Shown here piece after piece: positions 15,502 to 31,747 of a stretch of 64,000 nt of DNA. The translations under genes were made by a program, and so were the position numbers. Source of the stretch: Patescibacteria group bacterium (GTDB lineage Bacteria; Patescibacteriota; Doudnabacteria; UBA920); contig DAIMCS010000005.1 of NCBI GenBank assembly GCA_036726225.1, positions 3,808-67,807 of the forward strand, written 5' to 3'. The notes under the pieces are model-generated. The model was given only the letters and a program-made list of their open reading frames with translations. It searched no databases and was not told where the DNA came from. Each line of letters begins with the position of its first letter. Within the stretch, counting starts at the first letter, position 1.

Positions 15502-15513
15502 ACCTTAATTATA

Positions 15514-15549
15514 ACAAAAAAACCGTCCCAAGGTAGGGACGGTTTTTAA
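15514..15549 (-). terminator. Intrinsic terminator for the SH3b gene
   Basis: aaaaaaaccgtccc-aaggta-gggacggttttt. Confidence 0.5.
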
Positions 15550-15556
15550 ATAACAA

Positions 15557-16333: not shown

Positions 16334-16448
16334 ATAACTATTTTAACACCTTTTATTTTTAATGCAAATTTTACCTATAAGTCTTAATTTGCGGTTAAAT
16401 TCAAAATTTGAGATAATCTAGGTCAGCTGAAAAGAAGGGAGCTATGAA

Positions 16449-16964
16449 ATGTCTTCAAATACGTTCGAGTTACTTGGCTTTTCCAATCCCTTGGACGATT
16501 ACCCGTCTCCGATTGTCCCCATAGGCAGGCTTAACGGTCAGCTTGTGGCGGTGTACACCACAATGAAAGATGGAGTATCTCACGTTACTGAGACTTTGTC
16601 CGAAGAAGCGGCATTCGATCGGCTCACCCCTGAGCTTAAAGATGCTTTGGGAGGATTCGACTACCTGTTCGATAACCTCTACGCCGTAACGTCAACCGAC
16701 GTTCGCAAATATCATGTTGCCGACCAAAAAGAGTTTTTTCTTTCTTTACTGGCCGACGACAATTTTGCGCCCGACAATCCTTTTGCGCGGTTAAGTATTG
16801 CTCAGCCTACCGGCGAACCAGCCATAATTTTAGCGGAGATAAAAAAATGCTATAAAGGACTGGGTAAAACGCCGAGATTCAAGAAGGCTTGGTTGATCCA
16901 AGAAATCGAACAAATGCGAGCTGATGGGATCGACGTCGCAGAAATCGAAACACTTCTGAAATAG
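16449..16964 (+). CDS. Hypothetical protein
   Basis: ORF with a terminator at 16980-17029. Confidence 0.45.
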   Translation: MSSNTFELLGFSNPLDDYPSPIVPIGRLNGQLVAVYTTMKDGVSHVTETLSEEAAFDRLTPELKDALGGFDYLFDNLYAVTSTDVRKYHVADQKEFFLSLLADDNFAPDNPFARLSIAQPTGEPAIILAEIKKCYKGLGKTPRFKKAWLIQEIEQMRADGIDVAEIETLLK

Positions 16965-16979
16965 ACCTCAAACATCTTT

Positions 16980-17029
16980 TGATATCCGGTGGCAATTTCG
17001 GTTGCTATCGGATATCTTATTTTTTTACA
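16980..17029 (+). terminator. Intrinsic terminator
   Basis: gatatccggtggcaa...ttgctatcggatatc hairpin followed by ttattttttt. Confidence 0.5.
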
Positions 17030-17039
17030 AACATCCTCC

Positions 17040-17069
17040 TTGCCGCAATAGGCTTTTTATTTTATAATA
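17040..17069 (+). promoter_or_regulatory. Sigma70-like promoter for tRNA-Gln
   Basis: TTGCCG, 18-nt spacer, TATAAT. The tRNA 5' end lies 21 nt downstream of the -10 box. Confidence 0.4.
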
Positions 17070-17073
17070 TCTT

Positions 17074-18624
17074 CTAGCTTGTCATATTCTTGGGGCGTAG
17101 CCAAGCGGTAAGGCACGGGCCTTTGAAGCCTGCATTCCCAGGTTCGATCCCTGGCGCCCCAGCCAAGACAAAACTTAGGTTAGTTTTAGAGAAATTTTTT
17201 CGTGCGACGCAGAGCGTCGCCCATTGTTTTACGGGGGATTCTTCAACTTTTTTATTTCGCAAAATCAGGTTCGAGCCGAAGATTTTTTGGAGGGAGGATT
17301 TTTTGGAGGGGAGGTCGTCTCCTTTTGCTATTTCGTCTAGCGTTGAAGCGTCCTTTATCCACTCTCGCATAGGTTCGAGCCACAGACTTCCCCCTCTTTG
17401 CGACTTGGCCAGAACTTCCTCAACCGATCTCTTTTCGGACATAGCCTCTCGCTTCTTGGCGAGGTAGGTTTCTCGGTCTATGTCCTGTTCAACAAAGAGG
17501 TCGGTAAGGCGGTCTATCTTGGCGTTAAAGACGCTTAATCGCTCCCGTAAGCTGTGGACTAAGGTTGCCGTAGTCTTGGAGCTACCTTTCTCGTCCTCGT
17601 CTGCGAGAGCCAATAACCCTTGCGTCCAATCGCTCGGCATTGCGTAATGTGTGAGTATTTCGGATAGGTCGGCGGCGAGGACTTCTTCTCTCACAAAAGG
17701 TTGAGAGCAACGAGCCGCCGATTTTTTTGTACAGCGATAGTAGATGTGGCCTTTCTGCTCCTCTGCGGTTATGCCCATACCGCACTCCCCGCAACGCAAA
17801 AGCCCACAAAAGGCTTTCGGTTCTTTATCTTTTCTCATTGGATGTCCACGACGGACAATTACGATCTGAACTTTATCAAAAAGGTGTTTGTCTATGAGTG
17901 GCGTATGTTTGCCCTCGTACATTTCGCCAGCGTAGCGGAAATGTCCGTAGTAAAAAGGATTAACGAGAATAAATCTTATTCTGTCTTTATGTATGGCGTT
18001 GCCATTTAAACTCTTAACCCCGTTTTCAAAAAGGAATGTAGAAATATCTTCAAGACGAGAGTTGCCTTTAGCGTAAAGCTCAAAGGCGGCTCTGATAAAT
18101 TTCGCTTTCTTCCGATCAACGACTATCGTCTTTGCTCGCACATCATTGAGGTAGCCAACGGGAGCAGTGCCGGGAAACTGTCCGAGCCGTGCCTTATGAT
18201 GTAGCCCTCGGCTTGTATTGGAGCTTAGGTCACGGATAAATTGGTTAGCCATACCAAACTCAACCGACATCATAAGTACATTGTCGTTTGAGAGATGGCT
18301 TCTGTCGTGCGTTTGAATACGCTGAATCGTCCCCTGTTGGAGTAGCCAACTGATCTGTCCGCCGTCCACGGGATTACGAGCCAAGCGATCTAGCTTCCAA
18401 CAAATAATGCCCTGTGCCTCGCCAGTCTGTATGCGTAGGAGCATATCGTTAAAGATCGGGCGACCGGGCATTTTTGCAGTTCGCTTTTCTACAAATTCGG
18501 CCGCAACTTCTAAGCCCTCGCTTTTCGCAAGCGAACGAAGTTCGTCTAATTGACCTTCGATGGAGAGGACTTGTTTATCCTCGACATCAGTAGATTTTCT
18601 AGCGTAAAGAAAGTATCTATTCAT
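17074..18624 (-). CDS. Large serine recombinase (integrase/resolvase family)
   Basis: N-terminal YARKSTD...Q catalytic Ser motif. Recombinase domain. CxxC...C zinc ribbon and coiled coil. ATG at 18624 (MNRYFLYARKST); the track start at 18702 is upstream. The 3' end reads across attL into the tRNA. Confidence 0.85.
   Translation of the reverse strand: MNRYFLYARKSTDVEDKQVLSIEGQLDELRSLAKSEGLEVAAEFVEKRTAKMPGRPIFNDMLLRIQTGEAQGIICWKLDRLARNPVDGGQISWLLQQGTIQRIQTHDRSHLSNDNVLMMSVEFGMANQFIRDLSSNTSRGLHHKARLGQFPGTAPVGYLNDVRAKTIVVDRKKAKFIRAAFELYAKGNSRLEDISTFLFENGVKSLNGNAIHKDRIRFILVNPFYYGHFRYAGEMYEGKHTPLIDKHLFDKVQIVIVRRGHPMRKDKEPKAFCGLLRCGECGMGITAEEQKGHIYYRCTKKSAARCSQPFVREEVLAADLSEILTHYAMPSDWTQGLLALADEDEKGSSKTTATLVHSLRERLSVFNAKIDRLTDLFVEQDIDRETYLAKKREAMSEKRSVEEVLAKSQRGGSLWLEPMREWIKDASTLDEIAKGDDLPSKKSSLQKIFGSNLILRNKKVEESPVKQWATLCVARKNFSKTNLSFVLAGAPGIEPGNAGFKGPCLTAWLRPKNMTS
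17091..17165 (+). tRNA. tRNA-Gln (anticodon UUG)
   Basis: 75 nt. Near-identical in arms to E. coli tRNA-Gln (TGGGG...GCCAAGCGGTAAGGCA...TTCGAnTCC...CCCCAGCCA). Anticodon loop CUUUGAA. Encoded CCA. Confidence 0.85.
17162..17317. repeat. IR-A (left terminal repeat of the element, about 156 bp)
   Basis: Reverse-complement match to 24641-24805, with one roughly 30-bp divergent patch. Confidence 0.8.
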
Positions 18625-18684
18625 AGTTGTAGTATACCACAACGGATGGTTTAAAACACAACTTTCAGCTATAATGGGATAAAT

Positions 18685-18891
18685 ATGAAAAGTGAAGCCC
18701 AAAAATTAGGCGATAATCTAAAACGAATAAGAACAGAGAAAGATATATCGCAGGGAGATATTGCACGAGCCTTAGAAGTGGATAAGAGTTTTGTCAGTAA
18801 TATAGAAAACGGCAAGACTAACCCGACACTTGCGACGATTGCAAAGATAGCAAAGGCAATCGGTGTTTCGGTTGATGAGTTATTAAAGTAA
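18685..18891 (+). CDS. XRE-family HTH transcriptional regulator
   Basis: Classic HTH_3: ISQGDIARALEVDKSFVSNIENG. Confidence 0.8.
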   Translation: MKSEAQKLGDNLKRIRTEKDISQGDIARALEVDKSFVSNIENGKTNPTLATIAKIAKAIGVSVDELLK

Positions 18892-18896
18892 AAATT

Positions 18897-20429
18897 ATGG
18901 CGACTTTAAATTGGATAGGAAAAGAAGCAGTAGTGAATCACGATAAAGAAGTGCCTTTTAAACTGCTCCAAAAAGTGCCGAGTGCTTCGGTGGGTAAGGA
19001 ATCAAAAAACCTTATCATTCACGGAGATAATCTTGAAGCTCTAAAGGCACTTATACCTTTTTATAAAAGTAAGGTGAAGTGCATTTATATTGATCCACCT
19101 TACAACACAGGCAACGAGGGTTGGGTATATAACGACAAAGTTAATTCTCCCAAAATCCAAGAATGGATTAAGAAGGTTGTTGGACGAGAGGGAGAAGATT
19201 TGACCCGCCACGATAAATGGATATGTATGATGTATCCAAGAATGAAGTTGCTACGCGACTTACTTGCAAACGATGGTGTAATTTTCGTAAGTATTGATGA
19301 CAACGAACAGCACTATCTAAGAATGGTTATGGACGAGATTTTTGGCGAAAAAAACTTTGTTGCTGACTTCATTTGGAATCACAGGAAATCAGGTCAAAAT
19401 GATATTGATGTATCTTTGTCTCATAATTATACGCTCTGTTATGCAAAAAAAAGAGCTGGACTCTTTTTGAATCGTCTCGCTATTGATGAAGGAAAGTTTT
19501 CTAATCCAGATAGCGATCCACGGGGCGATTGGGTTGCCGACCCTATGGACGCCCCCGCAATCCGAGAAAATTTAATGTATCCAATCATTAACCCAAATAC
19601 GAAACAAACATTTTTACCCCCTGTTGGGAGACATTGGCGATTTACTAAGGAAAAATACGAACAAGCGTTGAAGGATAATAGAATTGTTTTCGGGAAAACT
19701 GGCAAGTCCAAACCACAATTCAAACGCTTTAAAAGCGAAGCAGAGGAAAAAGGCATAAATGTTTTTACTATTTGGGACGATGTAGGAACTGCAACAGAAG
19801 GAACAAAAGAAATAATGGAGCTTTTTGGTGGAAAAAAAATCTTTGATACTCCTAAGCCAACTTCGTTTATTAAGAAAATTATTAAAATTGCTACGAAAGA
19901 TAATTCAATCGTATTGGATTCTTTTGCTGGTTCTGGGACAACTGGACACGCCGTTTTGGATTTAAATAAAGAAGATGGAATCAAACGCAGTTTTATTTTA
20001 GTAGAAATGGAAAATGATGTTGCTAAGAAAATTACCGCCGAGCGTATAAAGAGGGCTATCAAAAAGTATAAATATGATGACGGCTTTGAATATTGCGAAC
20101 TAGCCAAACCGCTTTTCAATGAGAAAGGGCAAATCAATGAGCAATGCACATATGGAGAACTTGCTACTTATATTTATTTTACCGAGACGCGAACAAATGC
20201 GGAAAAGAAGACTATCAAGTCGCCATTCATAGGAGAAAGTGGAGGCGTTTCTTACTACCTTATTTATGAAGGCAGAGATAAGAACGATCTCACTCGTTCA
20301 GCCCTTACGAAGTTGAAAATAAAGAAGCCAGCCGTAGTTTATGCGGATCGCTGTTTGGTGGACGAAGATGAGTTAAGAGAAAAAGGGATTGTATTCAAAC
20401 AAATCCCATACGAGATAAAAGTTTACTAA
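18897..20429 (+). CDS. Type III restriction-modification methyltransferase (Mod, N6-adenine, beta class)
   Basis: DPPYN motif IV precedes FAGSGTTG motif I (permuted order). The adjacent Res helicase-nuclease supports the call. Confidence 0.8.
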   Translation: MATLNWIGKEAVVNHDKEVPFKLLQKVPSASVGKESKNLIIHGDNLEALKALIPFYKSKVKCIYIDPPYNTGNEGWVYNDKVNSPKIQEWIKKVVGREGEDLTRHDKWICMMYPRMKLLRDLLANDGVIFVSIDDNEQHYLRMVMDEIFGEKNFVADFIWNHRKSGQNDIDVSLSHNYTLCYAKKRAGLFLNRLAIDEGKFSNPDSDPRGDWVADPMDAPAIRENLMYPIINPNTKQTFLPPVGRHWRFTKEKYEQALKDNRIVFGKTGKSKPQFKRFKSEAEEKGINVFTIWDDVGTATEGTKEIMELFGGKKIFDTPKPTSFIKKIIKIATKDNSIVLDSFAGSGTTGHAVLDLNKEDGIKRSFILVEMENDVAKKITAERIKRAIKKYKYDDGFEYCELAKPLFNEKGQINEQCTYGELATYIYFTETRTNAEKKTIKSPFIGESGGVSYYLIYEGRDKNDLTRSALTKLKIKKPAVVYADRCLVDEDELREKGIVFKQIPYEIKVY

Positions 20430-20430
20430 T

Positions 20431-22704
20431 ATGAAACTAAAACGCTACCAAGAAAACGCAATAGAAAAACTGGAAGAGTTTTTAGCGTTGCTCAAAAAGC
20501 AAAAGCCAAAACTTGCTTTCTATGAATTGACCGAAGAAAAATATAATGCCGAGTGGTTCGGTGATGTGCCTTTTGTTTGTATACGCATACCGACTGGTGG
20601 CGGAAAAACACTCGTCGGCTGTAAGTCAGTTGAACGGATAATGTCTATCGCATTACAGCACAAAATGGATACGGGTATTGTGATGTGGTTCGTGCCGTCC
20701 GATTCAATAAAGACGCAGACACTAAAAAAGTTTAGAGATTTGAAAGACTACCACTATGAAATGCTCAACGATTCTTTTGATACTAAGTTCAAAGTCTTTT
20801 CTAACGAGGAAGCACTTACCATTACGCCCGAAGATGTAAGAAATAATCTTTGTATTGTAGTCGCCAGTTTAGACGCTTTCCGTAAAGATCAGAAGATACA
20901 AAATAAATACAAGGTTTACAAAGAGAACGGGTCATTGATGGATCATTTCCAAAACCTTAAAGATGATTCGGCTCTTGAAAAAGATAAAGCGGGAACAGTC
21001 GTAAGTTCGTTAGCGAATGTCGTTCGTAAAAATAACCCACTCATTGTGATAGACGAAGGTCACCATACGCAAACAGAGCTATCAGTAGATATGCTTAAAG
21101 GACTTAGACCCTCTTTCATTATTGAGTTCACGGCTACGCCAAGAGACGGGAGCAATGTGCTTGTTCATACAAGTGCTTCGGAATTGAAAATTGAGGAGAT
21201 GGTAAAGATTCCTATTGTGCTTGAAAGTCGGACACAATGGGAACAGGTAGTCGCTGACGGAATAGCAAAGCGTGAGGAGCTTGAAAAACGAGCTAAGAAA
21301 CTTAAAGGCGAGTACATCCGCCCAATAGTTTTGCTTCAAGCCCAACCGAAAAGCAAAGTTAAAGCGACAATAACGATAGAGCAACTCAAACAGATGTTGC
21401 TTGATAAAAAAATTCCTGAAGAACAAATAAAAATAAAGACTTCGGAAGCTGATGAATTAGAAGGAATTGATTTGTTCTCTAAGAAATGTGAGGTGCGATA
21501 TATTCTCACAGTAAACGCACTTGCAGAAGGTTGGGACTGCTCCTTCGCTTATGTGCTTATTTCTGTTGCGAACTTAGGAGCAAGAATAGCAGTAGAGCAG
21601 ATTATCGGACGTGTTATCAGAATGCCTAACGCTCGCCGCAAAGAAGACGAAGCAATGAATCGCAGTTATGTATTTGCTTCTTCAGTAGATTTTAACGAGG
21701 CGGCGGACAAGGTTATCAAGGGACTTGTGGATAACGGATACAGCAAGAACGACCTTATTAGTGTTGCTGACGAGAAAGACTACTCCGATCCGTTAGAAGC
21801 GAAGAAGGCAATCAAAAAAGATTTGAAAGTGCCGATGATGACGCTCGGCAAAGACAAACTTTCCTTTGAAGACCTCTTGGGTGAGGACTTCAAATTAGCA
21901 AAACAGGACGCAGACTTTGATTTTAAAATCCATTATGACTTTGACGGGCAAGCAACGATAGATATTACGGAAGATGATGAGTGGCTACAAGGCAAACAGT
22001 TGAGCTTGCCGTATCAGTATCTTGAAGGCAATCACTCCGTTGAGGAATTAGCGTCTTGGCTTGATAAGAAGCTCCGCTTCCCAATGCTCAACCCCGACGA
22101 CAAAGCCGTCTTTATTGAAAGGGCTGTTCAAACGCAGATAAAGAAAAAGCGTAAACTCGCTGAATTATCGGTGAATAGATATTTACTCGCCGATCGCCTA
22201 AGTGTGGTGATAAATGAAATTCTTGAATTGTATACGAAAAAGATTTTTAACGGCTTGATGGCAAAAAAGAGCATTACTCTTGGTCTATTTGATTCGTATC
22301 CGACAACGATCACTCTCAAGTCGCCTGTGCCGAGGGTGTTTAATAAAAACCTATACGAGAGAATAGATGGTATCAACGGCGAGGAACGCGCGTTTGTAGA
22401 GCGTATTGACTTGGGGGCTTTGGATAATATTGAATACTGGGTGAGAAACCGAGAAAAAGTAGACCCGTTCTACATTCAAGGTTGGCGTAAAGGAAAGTTT
22501 TATCCCGACTTTGTGGCTATAACCAAGAAAGGCAACATCGTTGCCCTTGAATGGAAGGGAGAAGATCGCGTAAGCAACGAGGATACCGCCTACAAAGTAG
22601 AAATAGGAAATATTTGGGAAAAACTTGGTCGTGGTAAAACCTATTTCTTTCTCGTTCATAATGGGAATACCGAAGAAGTTTTAGGTAAACTGCGAAACCT
22701 ATAA
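20431..22704 (+). CDS. Type III restriction enzyme Res subunit (SF2 helicase + PD-(D/E)xK nuclease)
   Basis: Walker A PTGGGKT. DEGH box VIDEGHH. C-terminal YPDF...EWK nuclease motif. Start codon overlaps the mod stop. Confidence 0.8.
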   Translation: MKLKRYQENAIEKLEEFLALLKKQKPKLAFYELTEEKYNAEWFGDVPFVCIRIPTGGGKTLVGCKSVERIMSIALQHKMDTGIVMWFVPSDSIKTQTLKKFRDLKDYHYEMLNDSFDTKFKVFSNEEALTITPEDVRNNLCIVVASLDAFRKDQKIQNKYKVYKENGSLMDHFQNLKDDSALEKDKAGTVVSSLANVVRKNNPLIVIDEGHHTQTELSVDMLKGLRPSFIIEFTATPRDGSNVLVHTSASELKIEEMVKIPIVLESRTQWEQVVADGIAKREELEKRAKKLKGEYIRPIVLLQAQPKSKVKATITIEQLKQMLLDKKIPEEQIKIKTSEADELEGIDLFSKKCEVRYILTVNALAEGWDCSFAYVLISVANLGARIAVEQIIGRVIRMPNARRKEDEAMNRSYVFASSVDFNEAADKVIKGLVDNGYSKNDLISVADEKDYSDPLEAKKAIKKDLKVPMMTLGKDKLSFEDLLGEDFKLAKQDADFDFKIHYDFDGQATIDITEDDEWLQGKQLSLPYQYLEGNHSVEELASWLDKKLRFPMLNPDDKAVFIERAVQTQIKKKRKLAELSVNRYLLADRLSVVINEILELYTKKIFNGLMAKKSITLGLFDSYPTTITLKSPVPRVFNKNLYERIDGINGEERAFVERIDLGALDNIEYWVRNREKVDPFYIQGWRKGKFYPDFVAITKKGNIVALEWKGEDRVSNEDTAYKVEIGNIWEKLGRGKTYFFLVHNGNTEEVLGKLRNL

Positions 22705-22710
22705 AAAGAT

Positions 22711-24558
22711 ATGAGACTACTCAATTTTAGAATTAAAAATTATAAGTCCATCACCGATTCAAAAGATGTATTCCTCTCCGAGTTGGATAACATTACTATC
22801 CTCGCGGGACAAAATGAATCTGGTAAAAGTTCTATTTTACGGGCTTTGAATGATTTTGAAAGCGGAGAATTTGAAAAAGATTCAGTTCCTTTTTCACTTG
22901 AAAACGAAACTCAACAATCCGTGAGTTGCACTTACCGGATTGAGGATCAAGACAACCTAATTGAGCTTTTGACCGATTCAGTCATTGAAGATTTTTCTCT
23001 TAAATTACAGGAGGGTGAACAGATTTTGGATAAAGAGAAAATTGCGAGAATAAAAAACTTTACCCTAAGCCGCATAAGTGAAAAAGACGCTGTTCGTCTT
23101 GAGTTAGATGACGCAACTTTCAATATTTTTAAATCCGCCGTTCTTGAAAAACCGGCAATACCAAATCCAACTGCCGAGCAAGAACAGGGTGATGTTGTGA
23201 AAGAAAAGTATATCGCTGTTTCTGAAGATATGAATAGTAAAGTTGCCGAAATATTTTGGGCAAATTGCCCAAAGGTTGTTTACTTTGATGATTTTTGTGA
23301 CTTACTACCGGACAAGATTTTTATTTCAGCTCTAAAAAATAAGCAAAAAGATACACAGGGATATAAAGCCGTGAGGAACTTAGAGAATATTCTCAAAACG
23401 GATTTTGTATCAAAGGACGGAGAAGTTGATTCCCGACGAAGAACCAAAGAGACGCGAGAAAACGATACTCTTTCAATTGATTTCCAAAATGATTGGGGTC
23501 AAAGGATACACGGAGAGAACAAGGTTATCGTCAAGTATAATTTTGAGAAGCGTGTCGGTGATAATGAAAATGGTTCTTATGTTAATTTCTTTGTAGAAAC
23601 GAAGGAGGGGCAACCTCTACCACCTAAGCAAAGGAGTAAAGGATTGATTTGGTTTCTATCTCTTTGGCTTGAACTCAAAGCACAAAATGCTTCCGGTAAT
23701 GATTTAATTCTTCTATTAGATGAGCCAGATCAACATTTACATGTTAAAGCTCAAAAAGATATTTTAAAACTTATAAATAAACTTGCGACAACTACCGAAG
23801 TTGAAGAATCAGAAGCAGAGCGACGCGGCGATCAAATAATCTACGCTACTCATTCGCCCTACCTCATTGAGATAGAGCGTTTAAATCGCGTAAAGTTGAT
23901 AATCAATTCAGAAAAGCAAGGAACTCAAGTTGAAGATATTGCGACAAGCAAGATAAATACCGAGTTCAAAAAAGACGCCCTACAACCTATTGTGGACGCA
24001 ATAGGGTTAAGTGTTAATGAGTTTTCTTCGTTAGACAAAAACAATATTATTCTTGAGGGGATTTCGGATTTTTATTATTTCTCTGCTTTTAAGAAGCTCT
24101 TACAACGCACCGAAGAGTATAAGTTTATTCCGGGAATCGGCGTTAGGCAGATAAATAATCTAATATCTCTTGCTATCGGCTACGATCTCAACTGGTTGGT
24201 TATCATTGATGATGATCCAACTATTGGCGGGAAAGATTCAAAGAAGAAATATGACGAGATAAAAGACCATGTTTTTGATGGTGATTCAGCAAAAACGGAC
24301 AAGAAGGTAAATATTTTGAGCGGAATCGTTGGAGTAGAAAACATGTTTACGATTGACGACTTAAAATTAGTTGATTCAAAGGTTAATACTAATACCGATA
24401 TGGTTAAGGTTGTGGGGAAAAGGAGAAAAGTCTTGTTTGCTCAAATGTTTTATGAAAAAGTCTTGAGTGGAGAGATTACAAAGGATAAGCTATCACAATC
24501 TTCCATCAATAACTTTACCCAAGCCTTTGATTTTATTGACAGAGGTATGACCATCTAA
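22711..24558 (+). CDS. OLD-family ABC-ATPase/Toprim nuclease (class 1 OLD or fused PARIS-like AriAB)
   Basis: GQNESGKSS Walker A. LLLDEPDQHLH Walker B/D-loop. C-terminal Toprim with EGISD and IIDDD motifs. No adjacent helicase. Confidence 0.7.
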   Translation: MRLLNFRIKNYKSITDSKDVFLSELDNITILAGQNESGKSSILRALNDFESGEFEKDSVPFSLENETQQSVSCTYRIEDQDNLIELLTDSVIEDFSLKLQEGEQILDKEKIARIKNFTLSRISEKDAVRLELDDATFNIFKSAVLEKPAIPNPTAEQEQGDVVKEKYIAVSEDMNSKVAEIFWANCPKVVYFDDFCDLLPDKIFISALKNKQKDTQGYKAVRNLENILKTDFVSKDGEVDSRRRTKETRENDTLSIDFQNDWGQRIHGENKVIVKYNFEKRVGDNENGSYVNFFVETKEGQPLPPKQRSKGLIWFLSLWLELKAQNASGNDLILLLDEPDQHLHVKAQKDILKLINKLATTTEVEESEAERRGDQIIYATHSPYLIEIERLNRVKLIINSEKQGTQVEDIATSKINTEFKKDALQPIVDAIGLSVNEFSSLDKNNIILEGISDFYYFSAFKKLLQRTEEYKFIPGIGVRQINNLISLAIGYDLNWLVIIDDDPTIGGKDSKKKYDEIKDHVFDGDSAKTDKKVNILSGIVGVENMFTIDDLKLVDSKVNTNTDMVKVVGKRRKVLFAQMFYEKVLSGEITKDKLSQSSINNFTQAFDFIDRGMTI

Positions 24559-24563
24559 GGGAG

Positions 24564-24597
24564 TTTGCCGATCTTCCAAGACGGCAAAAGTTTTTAA
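24564..24597 (+). terminator. Putative terminator of the XRE-mod-res-OLD operon
   Basis: ttgccg...cggcaa hairpin followed by aagttttta. Confidence 0.35.
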
Positions 24598-24640
24598 CAC
24601 GCGCACGGGTAGGGTGGGGCAAGTGTTATGTCTTGCGTGA

Positions 24641-24805
24641 CGACCTCCCCTCCAAAAAATCCTCCCTCCAAAAATCTTCGGCTTTGTATTCTTGAATCTG
24701 TATTTTGCGAAATAAAAAAGTTGAAGAATCCCCCGTAAAACAATGGGCGACGCTCTGCGTCGCACGAAAAAATTTCTCTAAAACTAACCTAAGTTTTGTC
24801 TTGGC
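24641..24805. repeat. IR-A' (internal inverted copy of the left end)
   Basis: Reverse complement of 17162-17317. Shares the 5-bp GCCAA core with IR-B. Confidence 0.8.
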
Positions 24806-25091
24806 TCGTCTTTATAGTACCGCTCGAACGATTTTCATGGAAGATTTGGGCTAGTTTACCTAGTCACGCGGGTAGTCACTCGCTCCTTGCCCGAATGACT
24901 AGGGAGTATTGCTGAAAGCCCTAGTGAACACGGGGTCTTTCATCAATACCATCTCACAAAAAAGCAGTCCTACTTCACTCCGCTCCTCCTAGCGTCCGTC
25001 GCTCCGTGAAAATGTCACGGGTTCGTGTCTGGTGGCTCGGCCTTTGCTTCCGTCCTGCTAATTCTTTTTGCTCGTTGGTGGGGGGGGGTAA
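24801..25091. repeat. IR-B (internal inverted copy of the right end, 291 bp)
   Basis: Perfect reverse-complement match to 31010-31299, except G9 versus C8 in the homopolymer tract. Confidence 0.85.
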
Positions 25092-25146
25092 ATCGTGATT
25101 GAAAAATAAAATAAAAAATCGTTCAAGGCCGCTAGGCCGAGCGAAT

Positions 25147-26478
25147 TTATTTTTCAAACCAATTTTTTAGTTTTTCTTCTACAATATCGCGTGGAGTAGC
25201 GTAGCGTTCCCGCGATATTTTTAAAATAGTTTCTCGGTCTGCTTCGTATCCCGATGTTTTGAGCGGGGGCATAGTGATCGCCGAGAAAGCGTGAGACATT
25301 TTTCCGTCTATAAGAAGACGGAGAGCAATATGGTGGTTATCTAAATGCTCCAAGTCTTCGCTCGTAAATACTGGCTTCATTTCTTCCGCTAATTCCTTAG
25401 CGTCGTAATTCCCAACGCGGAAAGAAAGTATACTGCCTACATTGCCAAAAACAGCGTGTTTTATGGCCTCCGGTAGCTGATAGAGGTATTGGTGGGCTAT
25501 GTTTAAATTAAGGCGGTATTTACGAGCTTCGGAGAGGATAGACGGGAAAATGTCGGTGGAGAAGTTTTGAAACTCATCTATGTAGAGGTAAAAGTCTTTG
25601 CGTTGTTCTTCGGGTAGATTCTGACGTTCCAAAGCGGAGAGATACATTTTAGTAATAATGGCCGACCCTAAAAGGTTGGATTTATCCTCGCCGACTTTCC
25701 CTTTGGATAAATTGGCCAAGAGGATTCTTTTGTTGTCCATAACAAAACCGAAGTCCACCGAGCTTTTGGGTTGGCCGACAATATTCCGCATTTGAGGAGA
25801 AGTGAGAAGTTGTCCGACTTTGTTTTGAACTGGCGAGATTATTTCTTTACGAAAACGCTCGTCATAGTTTTCGTAATCATCTACCCAAAACATTTTTACA
25901 ATCGGGTCTTTGATATTCCCGACAATGAGTTTTCTGAACTCATTGTCCACGAGCATACGATACACGCCGAGTAAAGTTTGTCCGGGCGTATCCATCAAAG
26001 CCAAGACGCAGTTGTATAAAATGTGTTCAAGACGCGGACCCCAAAAATCTTTCCACAAGTGCCTGAAAACGGAAATCAGAGACGAGGCGACGAGATGTTT
26101 TTCATCATCACCTTTCGCTTCCAGAATATTGATAGCGACGGGGAAAGATGTGTCCGCAGGATTGAAATAGACAACTTCGTTCGTGCGAGTTTTCGGTATG
26201 TAGTTTAATAAATCTTCAACCAAGTCGCCGTGAGGATCAATCAAAGCAACGCCGTGATTCAAGCGTAAGTCTTGAATCACCATATTTTTAAGGAGCGTTG
26301 ATTTGCCCGTTCCTGTTTTACCGATAATGTAGATATGATTCCGGCGATCTTGCGTCTTTATGCCGAACGCGCGACGCTGTTCCCTGAATGTCGTTTCGCC
26401 GAGAGATTCTATTTCGTCTAAATGATATTCGTCCAAAGGCGTAAAAACTGTTTCCCGAAGTTTTCCTTCCAAAGACAA
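25147..26478 (-). CDS. Soluble TraD/VirD4/TrwB-like P-loop ATPase (type IV coupling-protein-like, FtsK-HerA superfamily), no TM anchor
   Basis: IIGKTGTGKST Walker A. ALIDPHGD. FYLYIDEFQNF Walker B. LNIAHQ. Paralog of 27204-28712. Confidence 0.55.
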   Translation of the reverse strand: MSLEGKLRETVFTPLDEYHLDEIESLGETTFREQRRAFGIKTQDRRNHIYIIGKTGTGKSTLLKNMVIQDLRLNHGVALIDPHGDLVEDLLNYIPKTRTNEVVYFNPADTSFPVAINILEAKGDDEKHLVASSLISVFRHLWKDFWGPRLEHILYNCVLALMDTPGQTLLGVYRMLVDNEFRKLIVGNIKDPIVKMFWVDDYENYDERFRKEIISPVQNKVGQLLTSPQMRNIVGQPKSSVDFGFVMDNKRILLANLSKGKVGEDKSNLLGSAIITKMYLSALERQNLPEEQRKDFYLYIDEFQNFSTDIFPSILSEARKYRLNLNIAHQYLYQLPEAIKHAVFGNVGSILSFRVGNYDAKELAEEMKPVFTSEDLEHLDNHHIALRLLIDGKMSHAFSAITMPPLKTSGYEADRETILKISRERYATPRDIVEEKLKNWFEK

Positions 26479-26703
26479 AGGAGCGATTACTCGCTCCTTG
26501 TCGTGTGCCTATATGTTTTCGTTATGTTCATTCCGTCTTTAACCAATCGGGGAACGATTGCCTAAAGTTCGGGATTAGCTCGTATTCCCCAAGCTGTCCC
26601 GCCCGCAACATCTTTTTAGCAAGAGAAGCGAGGGTAATGAAACTTAATGAAGTTTATACAACAAATGCCGTAAATAAGTCAAGGTAATGGTAAAATAACA
26701 CAA

Positions 26704-27207
26704 ATGGATTATAAAATTGATGTTGAAAATTTCACTCTACCAAACGGACAGACAGTTGAGGTTTCCAAACGCATTTATTCTTTCCAAAAGTGGAGAGGAG
26801 ATGAAATAAAAAACGACTACGGCGGTAAGGCGGTATTAGACAATGAAGGTAGTCCGCTTTTCGCTGAACTTGTAATACTACGGCTTTTGGAAAAAGAAGG
26901 TTGGTCTGGTATTTGGGTTGATACTTACGGCAAAAAGTTTAGGATGGGTTTACCAGAGAAATCTGATCCTATTTCGTTGCCTCCCGAGAAGCAAAGTTTA
27001 TTAGATAATATTTCAAAACAGGCGGGCGGATTTAAGGGTTGCTGGGATGTTTTTGCTTGGAAGGACAACGAATATCTTTTTGCCGAATCTAAGCGTATCG
27101 GCAAAGATTCAATACGCGATACTCAAATCAATTGGCTCTTTACCGCTCTCCAAGTGGGTATTCCTATCAAATCGTTTTTGCTCGTAGAGTGGAATATACA
27201 GAATTAA
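26704..27207 (+). CDS. Hypothetical small protein with a possible PD-(D/E)xK nuclease motif
   Basis: CWDVFAW...FAESKR fits D-x(n)-E-x-K. Sits between the two paralogous ATPase genes on the opposite strand. Confidence 0.3.
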   Translation: MDYKIDVENFTLPNGQTVEVSKRIYSFQKWRGDEIKNDYGGKAVLDNEGSPLFAELVILRLLEKEGWSGIWVDTYGKKFRMGLPEKSDPISLPPEKQSLLDNISKQAGGFKGCWDVFAWKDNEYLFAESKRIGKDSIRDTQINWLFTALQVGIPIKSFLLVEWNIQN

Positions 27208-28712
27208 AGTTTTCTTTTCGGCTCTCTAAAACTCTTTGGTTCGTCTAATTTCATTAACTCCTCTCGTCGTGCTTGATATTCTTCCTCAATTTCTTTGCGT
27301 TCCCGCAGATAGTTTTTTCCTATCTCACTTGAAGCTACCGCCGCAACGAATTCTTTTTCGTCCATTTCTGCAAATTCGTGAGGCGGAGGGAGATCGAGCG
27401 TTCGGACGGCGATAACTCCACCATCATTTTTATTTTTAATAACACATGACCGCCGTGGGAGTTCCTGAAGCCCTTGTATGTATGCTTCCCATCCCGGCGG
27501 GTCGTTGTAAATTGAGGCGAGAGATTCTTTAGCTAAAATATTAGAATCGTCCCGTGAGATTCTAAAATACGCTTGAAGTTCGCAGTTGGTAAGAATAGAG
27601 GCTCTCAAAGTTGTGGGAAGTTGAGCGAGATTTTGATGTGCCAGCAAAAGAGCGAGCTGATACTTGCGGGCTTCTGCGAGCATATCTTTAAAACTATCCG
27701 TTGCAAAGTTTTGAAACTCGTCTATGTAGAGATAAAACTTTCGGCGTTGAGGCTCTGGTGTATCTGTTCGGGAGAACGCCGCCGCCTGTATTTTCGCAAT
27801 AAGTAATGAGCCTAAAAGATCAGCACTCCCTTTTAGTCTGCCTTTATCCAGTTTAACGAGCAAGATTTTACCATCGTCCATAATTTCACGCAGATTGAAA
27901 GAACTTTTAGGCGAGGAAAGCATTTGTCCAACCTTGCCGTTAAACAAAAAGGCGTTCACTTTATTCAGAGTGGATTCTGCCCACTCGTCCTGTGTCCTGC
28001 GGGGTAAGCTATTAAATCTCTGAAAATATTCTCGGCAAACGCCGTGTTCAACTTTCTCTAAAATCTTGTTGCGTACTTCAAGGTCGGTAAGAAATAGAGG
28101 CAGTTCCGCAAGCGTAAGGTTATTTTGAATAAGAGCGACTAAAGTATTTTTTAGCAAAGCCTCCATTCTTGCACCCCAAGCGTCAATCCAAATTTTCTCA
28201 AATGCCCCTGTGAGTTCCAAGGCAATAGAATCAGCGTCTTCTCCCTTAGTGATTTCTAGCGGATTGAAAGTCACAATCCGTTCCGTGTTAGTTAGGTCAA
28301 CAAGAACGACACGCTCTTGGAGAAATTCGGGGTTATCTTTATTGAGAGCATACAAATATCCTTTTATGTCTTCCGTTAGGTCGCCGTGAGGATCAATAAC
28401 GCCAAACCCTAAACCATTTTCTATATCCTGCTTTACGAGCGATTCCAAAAATTTAGTTTTGCCGCTTCCCGAAGCACCAATAACATAAAAGTGAGTAGCT
28501 CGTGCCTCTTGCGACACGCCTTTCAGTTGGTATACCTCTTTGCCCTCGTCTATATTCTCAAACGAGGCGATACCCAAAGCCAACTCGTTAGGTGCGGGTT
28601 TTCTCATACGCACCTCTGGCACGAGTTCACGCTCGGAAAAGAGCGGGGCTTTGGGCTTTTTCGTGGTAAGCCAACGCCACAAAATTTTGAGGCGATCTTT
28701 TAACATATACAA
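27204..28712 (-). CDS. Soluble TraD/VirD4-like P-loop ATPase, paralog 2, with a charged C-terminal tail
   Basis: IGASGSGKTKF Walker A. VIDPHGD. FYLYIDEFQNF. LLAHQ. Collinear with 25147-26478. Confidence 0.55.
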   Translation of the reverse strand: MYMLKDRLKILWRWLTTKKPKAPLFSERELVPEVRMRKPAPNELALGIASFENIDEGKEVYQLKGVSQEARATHFYVIGASGSGKTKFLESLVKQDIENGLGFGVIDPHGDLTEDIKGYLYALNKDNPEFLQERVVLVDLTNTERIVTFNPLEITKGEDADSIALELTGAFEKIWIDAWGARMEALLKNTLVALIQNNLTLAELPLFLTDLEVRNKILEKVEHGVCREYFQRFNSLPRRTQDEWAESTLNKVNAFLFNGKVGQMLSSPKSSFNLREIMDDGKILLVKLDKGRLKGSADLLGSLLIAKIQAAAFSRTDTPEPQRRKFYLYIDEFQNFATDSFKDMLAEARKYQLALLLAHQNLAQLPTTLRASILTNCELQAYFRISRDDSNILAKESLASIYNDPPGWEAYIQGLQELPRRSCVIKNKNDGGVIAVRTLDLPPPHEFAEMDEKEFVAAVASSEIGKNYLRERKEIEEEYQARREELMKLDEPKSFREPKRKL

Positions 28713-28720
28713 AAATGGCT

Positions 28721-29239
28721 TTATGAAATGTTCAAAAAGCCGTGCGTGTGGGTATCAACTTTAGTGAAATCAAGATTCAATTCCTTTAGCGATTCGTTCA
28801 CGGCACTTTTCAACGATTCGTGGACGATTGTGACAAAAGCCGACAATTCCTCGGTCTTGAAAATATCAAGCTCCATTATATTACTTCCACCAATCGCTCT
28901 TGCGAGGTGCGGTAGTTCTTTCTCGTCCACGACGAGATACCATGAGACCAGTAATTGCTTGCCATAGTCTCTTGCTCCCGCATAGATAATCCAACCTAAC
29001 ATTGCTTCGTTTTTGATCTCAATCATCTCCCGCATTTGGCTACCGCCACCGCCACGAAATAAGCCCTTTACGGCCGCTCCCAATCCCGTGCTGATATTTT
29101 TCTTTTCTGCCACAATGCCGGGGATACCCGCCGCTTGAACATTGGACATAAAAGCCCGTAAGATTTTCTCGCTCTGCCCATTCGCTCCACCGATTGAAGC
29201 AAACCAACGCTCGGTAATGTTTTGATTTTTTAGGGACAT
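28721..29239 (-). CDS. Hypothetical protein
   Basis: ORF in an operon with the ATPase and the DHFR-like gene. No motif recognised. Confidence 0.35.
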   Translation of the reverse strand: MSLKNQNITERWFASIGGANGQSEKILRAFMSNVQAAGIPGIVAEKKNISTGLGAAVKGLFRGGGGSQMREMIEIKNEAMLGWIIYAGARDYGKQLLVSWYLVVDEKELPHLARAIGGSNIMELDIFKTEELSAFVTIVHESLKSAVNESLKELNLDFTKVDTHTHGFLNIS

Positions 29240-29360
29240 ATAAGATTTTGTTAAACAACTGCTTAATTAAGGCCGAACGACTAGACGGCCAAGAAACATT
29301 ATCTACATTTTAGCACTATTTTAAGTTTTTCTTTGGCGGCAAATTCTTTGCTCTTCAAAC

Positions 29361-29975
29361 CTATTTCACTAAAGATTCAGTCTTGAGCGGTCCGGTCGGT
29401 TCGTAGGTTGCAAATATTATGCCCGTAGGTAGAATTTTTGCGTATACCTGTTTGAAGCGTTCCGGTTGTGTGCCATCAGCGAATAATTTTTTGCCGGTGC
29501 CGATAGTAACGGGAAATGTCCAGATATGCATTCGATCTATGAGGTTGTTTTTAAGAAGCGTTTGTATAAGGTTGCTGCTACCGTACATCAACAGGTCAGG
29601 ACCATTTGATTTTTTAAGCTTTTTTATTTCTGCCACTACGTCTCCCGTAATAAGCTCGGAATTGCTCCAAGAGGGTTTAAAAGGTTTATGTGACACAACA
29701 TACTTTTTCGCGCGATCGAACTTCTTTCCCCACCGCGGCTCTGTTTTGTGTTTCGGCCAGTAACCGGCAAAAATATCATAGGTGAGTCTTCCCAAGAGCA
29801 GATCAAAAAGAGCATCCTGTATTTTTGTGTCGAATATATTGTCCCCTTCTTCGCCCCCATAACCGCCCTGCCAACCTCCGTATTTGAACCCTTCAGCTGT
29901 ATCTTCCTTCGAGCCACCGGGAGCTTGCATAACCCCGTCAAGGGTAATCATTGTGGTTGTGATAATTTTTCTCAT
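29361..29975 (-). CDS. Dihydrofolate reductase-like protein (RibD C-terminal domain family)
   Basis: MRKI...TLDGVMQAPGG start, a central GxxxL...VSHK region and a C-terminal YAKILPTGIIFATYEP pattern typical of RibD_C/DHFR-like proteins. Confidence 0.6.
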   Translation of the reverse strand: MRKIITTTMITLDGVMQAPGGSKEDTAEGFKYGGWQGGYGGEEGDNIFDTKIQDALFDLLLGRLTYDIFAGYWPKHKTEPRWGKKFDRAKKYVVSHKPFKPSWSNSELITGDVVAEIKKLKKSNGPDLLMYGSSNLIQTLLKNNLIDRMHIWTFPVTIGTGKKLFADGTQPERFKQVYAKILPTGIIFATYEPTGPLKTESLVK

Positions 29976-30066
29976 AATGTTTTATGGTTAATGTTAAATT
30001 ATTTCAAAAGTTCTTCCATTGGAACGCCTAACGCTTTGTGGCAAATTCTTAAATCTATTTTACCAC

Positions 30067-30930
30067 TTATTCCAAAATCGTGTGAGGCGTGTCGTCTTTA
30101 GGTGACTTCCAAATTGCCTCTAAAATCTTTTTGGCTGTTGTTAGGGTATATTCCGTTTCGGGAGCGAATAAAAACAATCTGCTTCCCGTACCTGCATTGT
30201 CGCCGCTCTTTCCAGCGTTCCGTAAACTCTCACTCCGTCCTTTGGACGGGGTGAGAGTGAGGACGCGGAAACGAGAAAGGCGGAGTTTCTCTTTTAATCT
30301 GTTGTCGCTCCACCACGACCAGTAAATCTTCAATTTATTTACAAACCTCTCGGTCGTCATTGTGCCTCTGTCGGCTTCAAGAAAATAGTTTATTTCCCCT
30401 CCTTCGTGAAGGATTGTAAAAAATGCGTCGGGAACGAGTGAGGGATTTTCGCCGCTCGCTTTTCGCAAAAGTTCTTTCAAGTCGTGTCCTTGAAACCAAC
30501 GGAGAATTTTTATCCCGCTCTCTTCGGTGGCGAGCGTAAGACAAATTCTAAATTGAGAAATCATTAAGGAATGGGCAATCAAGGGGAGTGTTCTTTCATT
30601 TTCCCGCAGACGGCGATAAATCCCTGCACGCTCGGTAGCGTCTTTTGAGAGTAGTTCCGCACCTTTGCGTCCAAGGGTGTAAACCATGTGCAACGAGGAA
30701 AGTTTGGCGGAGGTTTGGCTTTTCGGCCGATCAAGGTAGCCGTGCTGAAAGAGAGAAGCGAGCCGTCGGAGTAGATTCCTCTCTCCGCCTTGGTGCAAAG
30801 CCAAAATCTGGGGAGTGTTCATAAAGCGAAACTCTCCCACCGAGCGTAAGAGTTCAATGTCACGGGGCTGGAGCTGGAGGGGGTCGGCGACCTCGCTACG
30901 GACAAATTTTTTATGTATAAGGTTAGACAT
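30067..30930 (-). CDS. Replication-relaxation family protein (HTH N-terminus), putative mobilization/replication initiator
   Basis: N-terminal LQPRDIELLRSVGEFRFMNTPQILALH is Replic_Relax-like. This family commonly neighbours TraD/VirD4-like ATPases. A TATAAT box lies in 30931-30960. Confidence 0.5.
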   Translation of the reverse strand: MSNLIHKKFVRSEVADPLQLQPRDIELLRSVGEFRFMNTPQILALHQGGERNLLRRLASLFQHGYLDRPKSQTSAKLSSLHMVYTLGRKGAELLSKDATERAGIYRRLRENERTLPLIAHSLMISQFRICLTLATEESGIKILRWFQGHDLKELLRKASGENPSLVPDAFFTILHEGGEINYFLEADRGTMTTERFVNKLKIYWSWWSDNRLKEKLRLSRFRVLTLTPSKGRSESLRNAGKSGDNAGTGSRLFLFAPETEYTLTTAKKILEAIWKSPKDDTPHTILE

Positions 30931-31009
30931 AGAGGAATACCCTAATTATACGCCTACCGACCCCCTCAAACGAGGCCTTCTGCTTCCGTCCTATCCTTTT
31001 TTCTTCGTC

Positions 31010-31299
31010 TTACCCCCCCCACCAACGAGCAAAAAGAATTAGCAGGACGGAAGCAAAGGCCGAGCCACCAGACACGAACCCGTGACATTTTCACGGAGCG
31101 ACGGACGCTAGGAGGAGCGGAGTGAAGTAGGACTGCTTTTTTGTGAGATGGTATTGATGAAAGACCCCGTGTTCACTAGGGCTTTCAGCAATACTCCCTA
31201 GTCATTCGGGCAAGGAGCGAGTGACTACCCGCGTGACTAGGTAAACTAGCCCAAATCTTCCATGAAAATCGTTCGAGCGGTACTATAAAGACGAGCCAA
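31010..31299. repeat. IR-B' (right terminal repeat of the element)
   Basis: Reverse complement of 24801-25091. Ends at the GCCAA core abutting attR. Confidence 0.85.
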
Positions 31300-31341
31300 C
31301 AAAAAACTCATCCACGTTAGGCGGATGAGTTTTTTGTTTTG
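31300..31341 (+). terminator. Displaced intrinsic terminator of tRNA-Gln (right half of the ancestral attB)
   Basis: ctcatcc-acgttaggc-ggatgag hairpin followed by ttttttgtttt, immediately after attR. Confidence 0.55.
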
Positions 31342-31369
31342 CAGCCAAGATAAGTGATATAATAGATTT

Positions 31370-31747
31370 ATGGATTCAGACAAAAAACTTGAAGAACAAA
31401 TAAACGAATATGCCGCGCTTGCCAAGGAAAACCCCAAGATTGATGCAGCGGCCCTAATGGTAAGCGCGCTTCAAAGCCAAAGACCCCAGTCAGTTTCACC
31501 CAAGGCTAAAAGGTGGGCGTATTTAATTTCCATTGGCATACCACCTTTAGGCTTACTGTTCGCCTTAAATTATTTTATGAAAGACGACGACGAATCCAAG
31601 CAAGTGGCCTGGATGTGCGTAATTTTAACAATTGCCGCTATTATTATGTTTTGGCTATTCACCAAACTTTTATTTTCCGGGTCCGGGACTTCCCTGCAGC
31701 AAATCCAACAAATCAAACCTAACGACATATACCAGCTCAGCCAATGA
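31370..31747 (+). CDS. Hypothetical membrane protein
   Basis: Two predicted TM segments. ORF only. Confidence 0.4.
   Translation: MDSDKKLEEQINEYAALAKENPKIDAAALMVSALQSQRPQSVSPKAKRWAYLISIGIPPLGLLFALNYFMKDDDESKQVAWMCVILTIAAIIMFWLFTKLLFSGSGTSLQQIQQIKPNDIYQLSQ

Follow-up and report, generated by a model that had tools for sequence, protein, structure and literature searches.

Evidence for a polymorphic integrative element at a Patescibacteria tRNA-Gln gene, with two modules arranged around an inverted attP

The 64 kb stretch of Patescibacteria DNA analyzed here (contig DAIMCS010000005.1; referred to as the window, and the source of all coordinates) very probably contains a 14.1 kb integrative element that is likely mobilizable and still polymorphic, and that consists of two modules placed around an inverted copy of its own attP. 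In the proposed mechanism, a large serine recombinase (LSR) would insert the element by a conservative crossover within AGCCAA at the 3' end of tRNA-Gln(UUG), which would part the tRNA from its terminator, and one end of the element, the P' arm, would supply a replacement hairpin behind the tRNA. Mobile elements of the Patescibacteria (candidate phyla radiation, CPR) have barely been described, and this one was caught together with its empty site, a defence cargo and a family with thousands of integrase homologues. The presence of a conserved, intact and inverted attP in an integrated element falls outside the textbook life cycle of serine integrases. The public contigs and genomes that were compared with the window are numbered as loci L001, L002 and so on.

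The two ends of the element are defined by the following features.

17091-17165, plus strand: tRNA-Gln(UUG), anticodon ttg, the B half of attB (ARAGORN; Rfam RF00005, 63.3 bits; family junction alignment)
17161-17166, plus strand: attL common core AGCCAA (four-way alignment of attB, attL, attR and attP)
31294-31299, plus strand: attR common core AGCCAA (same alignment)
31300-31339, plus strand: B' half of attB, the original intrinsic terminator of the tRNA (RNA fold; adjoins the tRNA in the empty site of L004)

At attL the core comprises the final acceptor-stem base, the discriminator, CCA and a following A, and the sequence reads ...CCCCAGCCAA|GACAAAACTT with the junction at 17166|17167; attR reads ...GACGAGCCAA|CAAAAAACTC. 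The four-way alignment, in which attB was taken from L004, revealed exact reciprocity around AGCCAA, with the 6 bp core as the sole sequence common to attP and attB, and with attL and attR as exact hybrids of the two. The terminator hairpin and its T-run (approximately 31300-31339) fold at -22.5 kcal/mol (z = -6.6), and 0 of 200 shuffled sequences folded equally well. The insertion left the tRNA-Gln whole and displaced only its terminator, by 14 kb.

Much of this arrangement had been proposed in an earlier note that was made from the sequence of this DNA alone. ARAGORN and Rfam agree with the note on a tRNA-Gln(UUG) that ends at 17165, the LSR open reading frame (ORF) does read across the junction (minus strand, from 18624 to 17074), and the attL and attR sequences stand as they were first written. 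The proposal that the tRNA terminator lies 14.1 kb away, just past the right end of the element, is borne out by the RNA fold and by the contiguity of tRNA and terminator in L004. The left junction was located correctly but for its exact base, which is one to the right of 17165. The note was also right that attL and attR are as expected from a crossover in a short common core, but the intact internal attP is not an expected product as the note had held. Since integration does not predict this site, it needs an explanation of its own. A contrast in GC content between element and flanks was not seen (0.37-0.47 inside versus 0.40-0.46 in the flanks). Directly past the terminator, GCAGCCAAGA at 31341-31350 matches 9 of the 10 nt of the attL junction CCAGCCAAGA; this repeat could be the scar of an older insertion, a secondary site or a product of chance.

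The internal site, GACGAGCCAAGACAAAACTT, is inverted, and the earlier note had recognized it as a match of about 20 nt. While the site and its orientation stand, the match is far larger: the two ends of the element, a P' arm of 160 bp with the integrase 3' end and a P arm of 287 bp, are joined here into one inverted duplication that is 450 bp long. The site and the arms are as follows.

24801-24806, minus strand: TTGGCT, core of the intact internal attP and reverse complement of AGCCAA (sequence; four-way alignment)
17167-17319, plus strand: left P' arm, with a hairpin and the final ~50 codons of the integrase (inverted repeats I2 and I3; terminator scan)
24639-24800, minus strand: internal inverted P' copy, an integrase 3' fragment (inverted repeats I2 and I3; sequence; terminator scan; arm comparison)
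24807-25091, minus strand: internal inverted P-arm copy (inverted repeat I1, 296 nt, 99%; motif search)
31010-31293, plus strand: right P arm (inverted repeat I1; BLAST with one gap; sequences)

The underlying repeats I1-I3 are the only long inverted repeats within the window, and they pair 24792-25087 with 31013-31308 (296 nt, 99%), 17161-17265 with 24702-24806 (105 nt, 100%) and 17284-17319 with 24639-24674 (36 nt, 100%). Written out from left to right, the arrangement is B|P' - X - rc(P')|rc(P) - Y - P|B', with rc standing for the reverse complement. Module X (17320-24638) contains the integrase, a helix-turn-helix (HTH) protein, a Type III restriction-modification system and an OLD-like ATPase, and module Y (25092-31009) contains TraG-like genes, a Replic_Relax gene and others. 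All three junctions are legal att sites, and inverted repeats bracket each module. Judging from this layout, excision by attL x attR recombination would have to yield a circle with two inverted attP sites.

The left P' arm includes a hairpin (GCGACGC-AGA-GCGTCGC plus CCATTGTTTT, 17204-17220) that lies ~40 nt past the tRNA in the direction of the tRNA and is plausibly the replacement for the terminator that integration displaced. The internal P' copy is a variant that is longer by 9 nt and is interrupted by an in-frame stop at the KIFGSNL codons; its hairpin is at 24747-24763. The hairpins of both P' arms point into module X in the terminator scans, and both arms look like terminators for transcription entering that module. 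A switch in which read-through from the tRNA promoter controls the integrase was considered and rejected, as the same inward hairpin is present in both P' arms and the orientation of the module would leave read-through unchanged. In the internal P arm, the P half-site AAAATCGTTCGAGC lies at a distance of 17 nt from the core; this motif occurs exactly twice in the window, versus 0.02 occurrences expected. The right and internal P arms are identical except for a homopolymer at the distal edge, C8 (31013-31020) versus G9 (25080-25088), a difference that could serve to mark recombination in reads. Each P arm also has three TAGTCA boxes, CCTAGTCA-N4-GGTAGTCA-N17-TGACTAGG, at 24859-24903 with the inverted twin within 31197-31241. 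The boxes are kept in the 81-85% identical arm of L112 and look like operator or accessory-protein sites. Rfam matched no RNA family in the arms, and the promoter scan found nothing in the P arm.

The case for mobility comes from contigs that share the flanks of the element. A lookup of the exact flanking proteins in public assemblies yielded ~30 metagenome contigs, in which the shared sequence is 99.9-100% identical to the window. In L004 (ENA ERZ27267734 k141_439715), window positions 6449-17175 are joined straight to 31294-31434, which is the empty site with tRNA-Gln followed directly by the terminator for which the earlier note had proposed a search. Sister samples have the occupied site (the L001-L006 group and L021, in which a contig of 16.7 kb covers both modules), and the flanks there are 100% identical to those of the empty site. 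Given the empty site in L004, the occupied sister contigs and the precise ends, the presence or absence of the 14.1 kb is a population polymorphism. It is a precise-ended polymorphism such as a conservative site-specific recombinase would make, and site-specific integration together with an empty site in the same population, as expected of a mobilizable element, is what L004 and the occupied contigs display.

An alternative explanation for the two modules is that X and Y are separate elements stacked at one tRNA, one of them an integrase cassette and the other a cargo cassette or satellite served by the same integrase. The modules do vary independently among relatives, as the HTH-Mod-Res block is in X here and in Y in L040, L113 combines the same P arm with another X cargo and a second, differing P-type arm, and in L095 the same arms flank two cargo cassettes. 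However, the empty site in L004 lacks X and Y alike, and no contig was found with X-only or Y-only occupancy. Moreover, insertion of X or Y alone at attB would need opposed core polarity, which is impossible for a serine recombinase with a non-palindromic crossover, and stacking is thus a very unlikely origin of the arrangement.

It might also be asked if the inverted internal attP is an artefact of assembly from mixed integrated and excised forms. Short-read contigs often break at the arm edges, and a few public contigs are poor; positions 1-60 of L114 (ENA ERZ4902915 NODE_8040), for example, open with the Illumina adapter AGATCGGAAGAGCACACGTCTGAACTCCAGTCAC... On the other hand, mixing of integrated and excised forms yields direct rather than inverted repeats. 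The junctions of X with the internal attP and of the internal attP with Y recur in many independent contigs from different samples (L001-L006, L021-L026), including the unique outer junctions 24638|24639 and 25091|25092. The same architecture is present in L036, a chromosome-level long-read assembly (OY970354.1) in which the P arms are 266 nt and 100% identical and the P' arms are 141 nt and 93% identical. The recurrent junctions and the long-read chromosomes exclude an artefact, to which we assign next to no probability.

The recombinase responsible for the insertion is presumably the product of the first gene in module X, which is accompanied by a small divergent gene.

17074-18624, minus strand: LSR, 516 aa (Pfam; translation; tail analysis)
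18685-18891, plus strand: Xre-type HTH protein, 68 aa, divergent from the integrase (HTH_31/HTH_3; PADLOC HTH_VI and Control_protein; tblastn)

The LSR has the Resolvase (PF00239, 2.2e-17, residues 31-174), Recombinase (PF07508, 3e-13) and Zn_ribbon_recom (PF13408, 8e-10) domains in that order, and the motif YARKST near its N-terminus belongs to a catalytic domain with a serine nucleophile. It is at most 32% identical to any record in the phage and plasmid collections. The start is the ATG at 18624, although an upstream TTG at 18702 is possible, and the stop is at 17074-17076. There is no stop codon ahead of the crossover core, and the ORF spans the junction and the whole tRNA-Gln gene in antisense, such that the last 29 codons are antisense tRNA. 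Because the ORF has no stop of its own, the tail of the protein is dictated by whichever half-site adjoins. Across the family, integrases joined to a tRNA end in 2-90 arbitrary antisense-tRNA residues (xGIEPx), and those joined to P end in 13-17 residues of the form LYxxxRTYFxxN. The idea that the LYxxxRTYF tail of the attP form is a functional peptide found no support, as the tail is fully accounted for as the translation of conserved P half-site DNA. In the integrated state, transcription of the integrase must meet the tRNA gene head-on to reach the stop codon, and this may damp the output. On the opposite strand, the KIFGSNL codons at 17261-17277 read AAAATCAGGTTCGAGCC, a third P-type half-site motif ~95 nt from the core that is also found at the equivalent position in relatives; the internal inverted arm has a 7-11 nt insertion exactly there. 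Homologues of the 68 aa HTH protein were found by tblastn at the same place beside the integrase in at least 25 relatives, whatever the cargo, which indicates that the protein is part of the integrase module and not of the restriction-modification system. Candidate roles for the protein are those of a regulator, a C-protein of restriction-modification systems or a directionality factor.

A further question is how such an integrase finds its target. In an alignment of junctions from ~45 family loci, the chromosomal side was always the T-arm of a tRNA, with GGTTCGA ending 13 nt from the core as it does in the tRNA-Gln of the window, and the P side was always (G/T)AAAAT(A)GGTTCGAGC...TATA..., with GTTCGA ending 17 nt from the core. 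The core common to relatives is 3-6 bp; its minimal form is 3 nt (AGC, CAC or CTC) and corresponds to the discriminator flanked by the final base of the acceptor stem and C74. Insertion in either orientation through a palindromic crossover dinucleotide was rejected as a family rule; AGC cores would allow it, but the CAC and CTC cores of relatives argue against it. In serine integrases the motif for the second DNA-binding domain is ~5 bp nearer the centre in attB than in attP (PMC11722253). The 4 nt difference in the GTTCGA offset agrees with this spacing rule, provided that GTTCGA is the bound motif. We infer that the zinc-ribbon domain most likely reads the T-loop sequence of the tRNA, whose motif recurs in the P half-site about half a helical turn farther out. 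Recognition of the T-loop would explain how at least five different tRNAs can be occupied by integrases that are >90% identical to one another. A family devoted to tRNA ends is unusual, as t(m)RNA sites are used by serine integrases in just 4.9% of mapped elements (PMC7192596). The offsets of 13 and 17 nt amount to a simple, testable rule for the T-loop as the attB motif, one that explains hopping among >20 tRNA species and could interest integrase engineers; if it is true, the integrase is a natural enzyme that reads the universal tRNA T-loop.

The family to which this integrase belongs is large. GTDB species genomes contain 272 relatives at 55-95% identity, essentially all of them in Patescibacteria metagenome-assembled genomes, and a protein collection contains >4,500 homologues at E < 1e-50. 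In the analysis, the host was assigned through these relatives rather than through a marker gene. Layouts were counted in 80 related loci retrieved from Patescibacteria genomes, including long-read chromosomes. Of the 68 loci that could be assessed, 50 have an antisense tRNA adjoining the integrase 3' end, and >20 tRNA species are involved. Among integrase cluster representatives, ~8-10% run into a P arm rather than a tRNA. The inverted integrase 3' end (its last 80-173 nt) together with the core is located upstream of the integrase in 52 of the 80 loci, or 35 of the 46 that have at least 2.5 kb of upstream sequence, and both arm pairs lie within the retrieved stretch in at least 10. Many short-read contigs end 120-300 nt past the internal P' copy, as would be expected if the repeated P arm breaks assembly there; the arm repeats thus account for assembly breaks at these tRNA loci. 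Relatives without the long P-arm repeat showed no short second P half-site within the available flank.

The arms themselves evolve in concert. The core-proximal 105-112 nt of the P' arms within a locus are usually identical or nearly so, and P arms are 98-100% identical, whereas the same positions vary freely between loci; this pattern indicates that the core-adjacent part is homogenized by recombination between the arms. The internal copy has a 7-11 nt insertion at the KIFG|SNL codons that recurs in distant subfamilies, from which it follows that the duplication is ancestral. Several layouts suggest secondary recombination or tandem arrays. In L113 (1-67, 7040-7100), X is flanked on both sides by P-type sites whose arms differ; L095 (2251-15447) has four copies of a ~380 bp P arm and two cargo cassettes, one on either side of the integrase; and in L093 (9650-9845, 11337-11520) the integrase cassette X lies between two tRNA-like 3' ends. 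Together with the integrases found in P-arm contexts, these layouts indicate that att sites do get reshuffled. In six further loci (L063, L067, L071, L077, L089, L100), the integrase is joined to a tRNA-like 3' half not called by ARAGORN and followed by a conserved ...CCTTACACG...GTGGACTATATCATC; these partners may be intron-containing tRNA genes, which were recently reported for Patescibacteria (PMC13011429).

What is the internal attP for? One possibility, which we regard as doubtful, is that it is a functionless relic of an ancient inverted duplication that gene conversion has homogenized, and that it acts at most as a passive transcription insulator. Inverted repeats cannot delete, so a duplication of this kind would be tolerated, and the internal copy does hold an old insertion. 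In addition, the direction of the cargo genes relative to the integrase is mixed across relatives (5 versus 8) without a visible rule, and the integrase is almost always one way round relative to the tRNA. The hairpins of the P' arms, which both face module X, would suit an insulator. The conservation of the copy is harder to reconcile with a relic, as it is retained across lineages whose integrases are down to ~55% identical. Its arms are 87-100% identical within elements and diverged between them, they extend over 105-340 bp, far beyond an LSR half-site, and the internal variant is itself conserved. Furthermore, an active attP in the chromosome is a liability that selection should purge if it were useless.

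We prefer the reading that the arrangement is selected rather than a relic, and the target of selection would most likely be the 3' context and expression of the integrase together with the strand of the X cargo that is read. In its specific form, an invertible design that controls the integrase 3' context or the cargo strand, this proposal is offered tentatively. Recombination between the arms would flip the modules and preserve every att site. While the element is integrated, the exchange would be of the RecA type, and in the circle the integrase might add weak attP x attP recombination. The A118 integrase recombines attP x attP at <5% of the attP x attB rate and is inactive on attL or attR (PMC3556126). 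Since known LSRs alone act essentially on attP x attB only, flipping in the chromosome would most likely be RecA-type exchange in the arms, and integrase-driven flipping is conceivable in the circle only. There are contigs that may record a flip. Module Y is in the orientation of the window beside attR in L013, L014, L017 and L028, and it is flipped beside attR in L015 (JGI 3300012175) and L016 (ENA ERZ27267685), where the opposite end of Y is joined via the P arm to the terminator. These two contigs are weakly consistent with inversion across the 287 bp of perfect homology. A single-stranded fold-back route (CTX-phage-like or hairpin-primed) was rejected because concerted double-strand exchange would leave a broken, hairpin-capped chromosome, and origin of the arrangement by simple cointegration or tandem accretion was rejected because both produce direct rather than inverted sites.

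The remaining genes of the element belong to a defence block in module X and a mobilization-like block in module Y.

18897-20429, plus strand: Type III Mod methyltransferase (Pfam N6_N4_Mtase 5.6e-39; PADLOC MTase_III 3.9e-182)
20431-22704, plus strand: Type III restriction subunit Res (Pfam ResIII 1.2e-16; PADLOC REase_III 5.3e-95)
22711-24558, plus strand: OLD-family (AriA/Old/GajA-like) ATPase (Pfam AAA_15 3.8e-23 and AAA_21; PADLOC)
25147-26472, minus strand: TraG/VirD4/HerA-like ATPase, 441 aa (Pfam TrwB_AAD_bind 2.4e-10 and DUF87)
26704-27207, plus strand: 167 aa protein with no family match (translation, Pfam, PADLOC)
27204-28712, minus strand: second TraG/VirD4-like coupling-protein paralogue, 500-502 aa (Pfam; paralogous repeat D1)
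28721-29239, minus strand: 172 aa protein with no family match (translation, Pfam)
29361-29975, minus strand: RibD_C-domain (dihydrofolate-reductase-like) protein (Pfam RibD_C 3.5e-18)
30067-30930, minus strand: replication-relaxation family protein (Pfam Replic_Relax 3.5e-26)

Pfam and PADLOC agree with the earlier note that the cargo combines Type III restriction-modification, an OLD-like protein and mobilization-like genes. The Mod and Res genes lie 1 nt apart and together constitute a Type III restriction-modification system. In PADLOC the OLD-like protein matches AriA (2.4e-24), Old (1.5e-20, residues 323-512) and GajA (9e-17, residues 322-547); the Old and GajA alignments cover the expected Toprim region, and no stand-alone Toprim match was obtained in Pfam at E < 0.01. 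The second TraG/VirD4-like protein matches TrwB_AAD_bind (1.3e-10), TraG-D_C (1.4e-7) and T4SS-DNA_transf (6.5e-6). The two TraG/VirD4-like genes are diverged paralogues (73% over 89 nt; 34% at the protein level in relatives), and homologues are present in the cargo modules of L029 and L086 and beside elements in L051 and L057. Pfam and PADLOC found no type IV secretion system genes within the element.

A different function for the inverted sites would be amplification similar to that of the yeast 2-micron plasmid, in which the integrase would occasionally recombine the inverted attP sites of the circle during replication and invert one fork, giving many copies per initiation ahead of re-integration or transfer. 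The excised circle deduced above would have the necessary parts, namely a recombinase gene, two target-bearing inverted repeats and two unique regions, and the Replic_Relax gene adjoins a P arm. Synapsis of attP with attP and weak recombination between such sites are documented for other LSRs. The SPbeta integrase, however, synapses two attP sites in complexes that are thought to be unproductive, with coiled-coil contacts thought to block strand exchange. No circle was recovered in the metagenome and viral-contig scans, and no origin of replication was identified. Of the 80 related loci, only 2 have a homologue of Replic_Relax, and autonomous replication is thus not a trait of the family. Amplification is accordingly a decidedly unlikely role. 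The selected invertible design, the relic and amplification together account for only part of the probability. A broader proposal is that the element exemplifies a large undescribed CPR class that forms a two-attP circle with the sites in homogenized repeats, and that the repeats function either as an integrase switch or in 2-micron-style amplification; this too is unlikely. In the first version, a flipped integrase module would rejoin the stop-less ORF to its native P-arm 3' end, which would replace or supplement a directionality factor, and in the second the serine integrase would invert attP x attP for copying. Either one, if true, would amount to a new kind of control by a serine integrase over the life cycle of a mobile element.

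Several observations weigh against the interpretation of a mobilizable element with a functional, invertible attP. Pfam and PADLOC revealed neither a canonical relaxase family nor an oriT in the element, and no directionality factor was identified beyond the candidate 68 aa HTH neighbour. Present-day mobility thus rests solely on the empty-site polymorphism. No excised circle of this exact element was found by scanning viral contigs with the integrase or by an exact 30-mer scan for the P' arm in one metagenome contig collection; this second scan, which was to sort the types of junction, gave no match at all, the collection evidently being one without these samples. Circularity could be shown for none of the contigs in which the integrase has an attP tail (L060, L112-L115). 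With regard to inversion, the LSRs that have been studied do not recombine attP with attL or attR. A flipped X was never seen in at least seven left-flank contigs, and L015 and L016 are short, low-coverage contigs that could be de Bruijn-graph mis-joins across the 287 bp perfect repeat. About a quarter of the assessable relatives (about 11 of 46) have no inverted copy within 10 kb, which would also be expected of a relic, as would the integrase frame being open in only 26 of 52 internal copies. The latter weakens the idea of an alternative 3' end and suggests that the copy is maintained as DNA rather than as a spare coding end. Finally, the more complex layouts of several relatives (L093, L095 and L113, described above) depart from the two-module plan.

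Comparison with known systems helps to place the element. The order of Resolvase, Recombinase and zinc-ribbon domains is that of LSRs from phages and other elements (phiC31, Bxb1, A118/LI, SPbeta SprA and TP901-1), and the element resembles those systems in its short core, in attP and attB sites that are otherwise unrelated, in a shared motif that in attP lies farther out than in attB by about half a helical turn, and in precise, conservative insertion with a restorable attB. Unlike the LSRs that have been studied, this family appears to rely on the T-loop for targeting many different tRNA genes at their extreme 3' ends, its integrase ORF crosses the crossover site, and a second, inverted attP is kept. 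The crossover site also lies within the integrase ORF in the myxophage Mx8, where attP is inside intP and integration therefore alters the C-terminus of the integrase, but the Mx8 integrase is a tyrosine enzyme and there is no inverted second attP.

With the 2-micron plasmid (FLP/FRT), the predicted circle would share a recombinase gene, two long target-bearing inverted repeats and two flippable unique regions. The likeness is architectural only, as the recombinase here is of the serine rather than the tyrosine type and the element integrates into a chromosome. The Hin, Gin and Cin invertase switches likewise have the recombinase gene inside a segment bracketed by inverted copies of its site. 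Those recombinases are small (~190 aa) serine enzymes with a C-terminal HTH that act on 26 bp sites with an enhancer and Fis and do not integrate, whereas the enzyme described here is a large serine integrase (516 aa) that includes Recombinase and zinc-ribbon domains, and its gene is bracketed by attL and attP, the arms being 105-296 nt long in the window and 105-340 bp overall. Insertion at a tRNA site and a cargo of Type III restriction-modification and OLD-family genes are shared with integrative and mobilizable elements and tRNA-linked defence islands, as are coupling-protein-like genes and a replication-relaxation gene that come with no complete type IV secretion system. However, tRNA-linked islands almost always have tyrosine integrases that cut inside the tRNA and bring a replacement 3' half, whereas here the tRNA is whole.

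An integrase ORF that runs through the crossover site, targeting of the T-loop and conservation of the inverted attP together set the family apart among serine-integrase elements. Literature searches, which cover open-access text, turned up no description of such a variant or of its architecture with an inverted second attP. A functional inverted attP would be a new device for regulation or amplification, whereas a functionless one would be a striking case of the concerted evolution of a hazardous site.

Two minor features of the window lie outside the element. The GC content is 0.53 at 12001-13000 versus ~0.42 elsewhere in the window. In addition, four diverged direct copies of a 75 nt unit are located at 55381-58676 with a spacing of ~250 nt, except for one that is 2.7 kb off, and each of these units probably marks the start of a gene in a small family of tandem paralogues.

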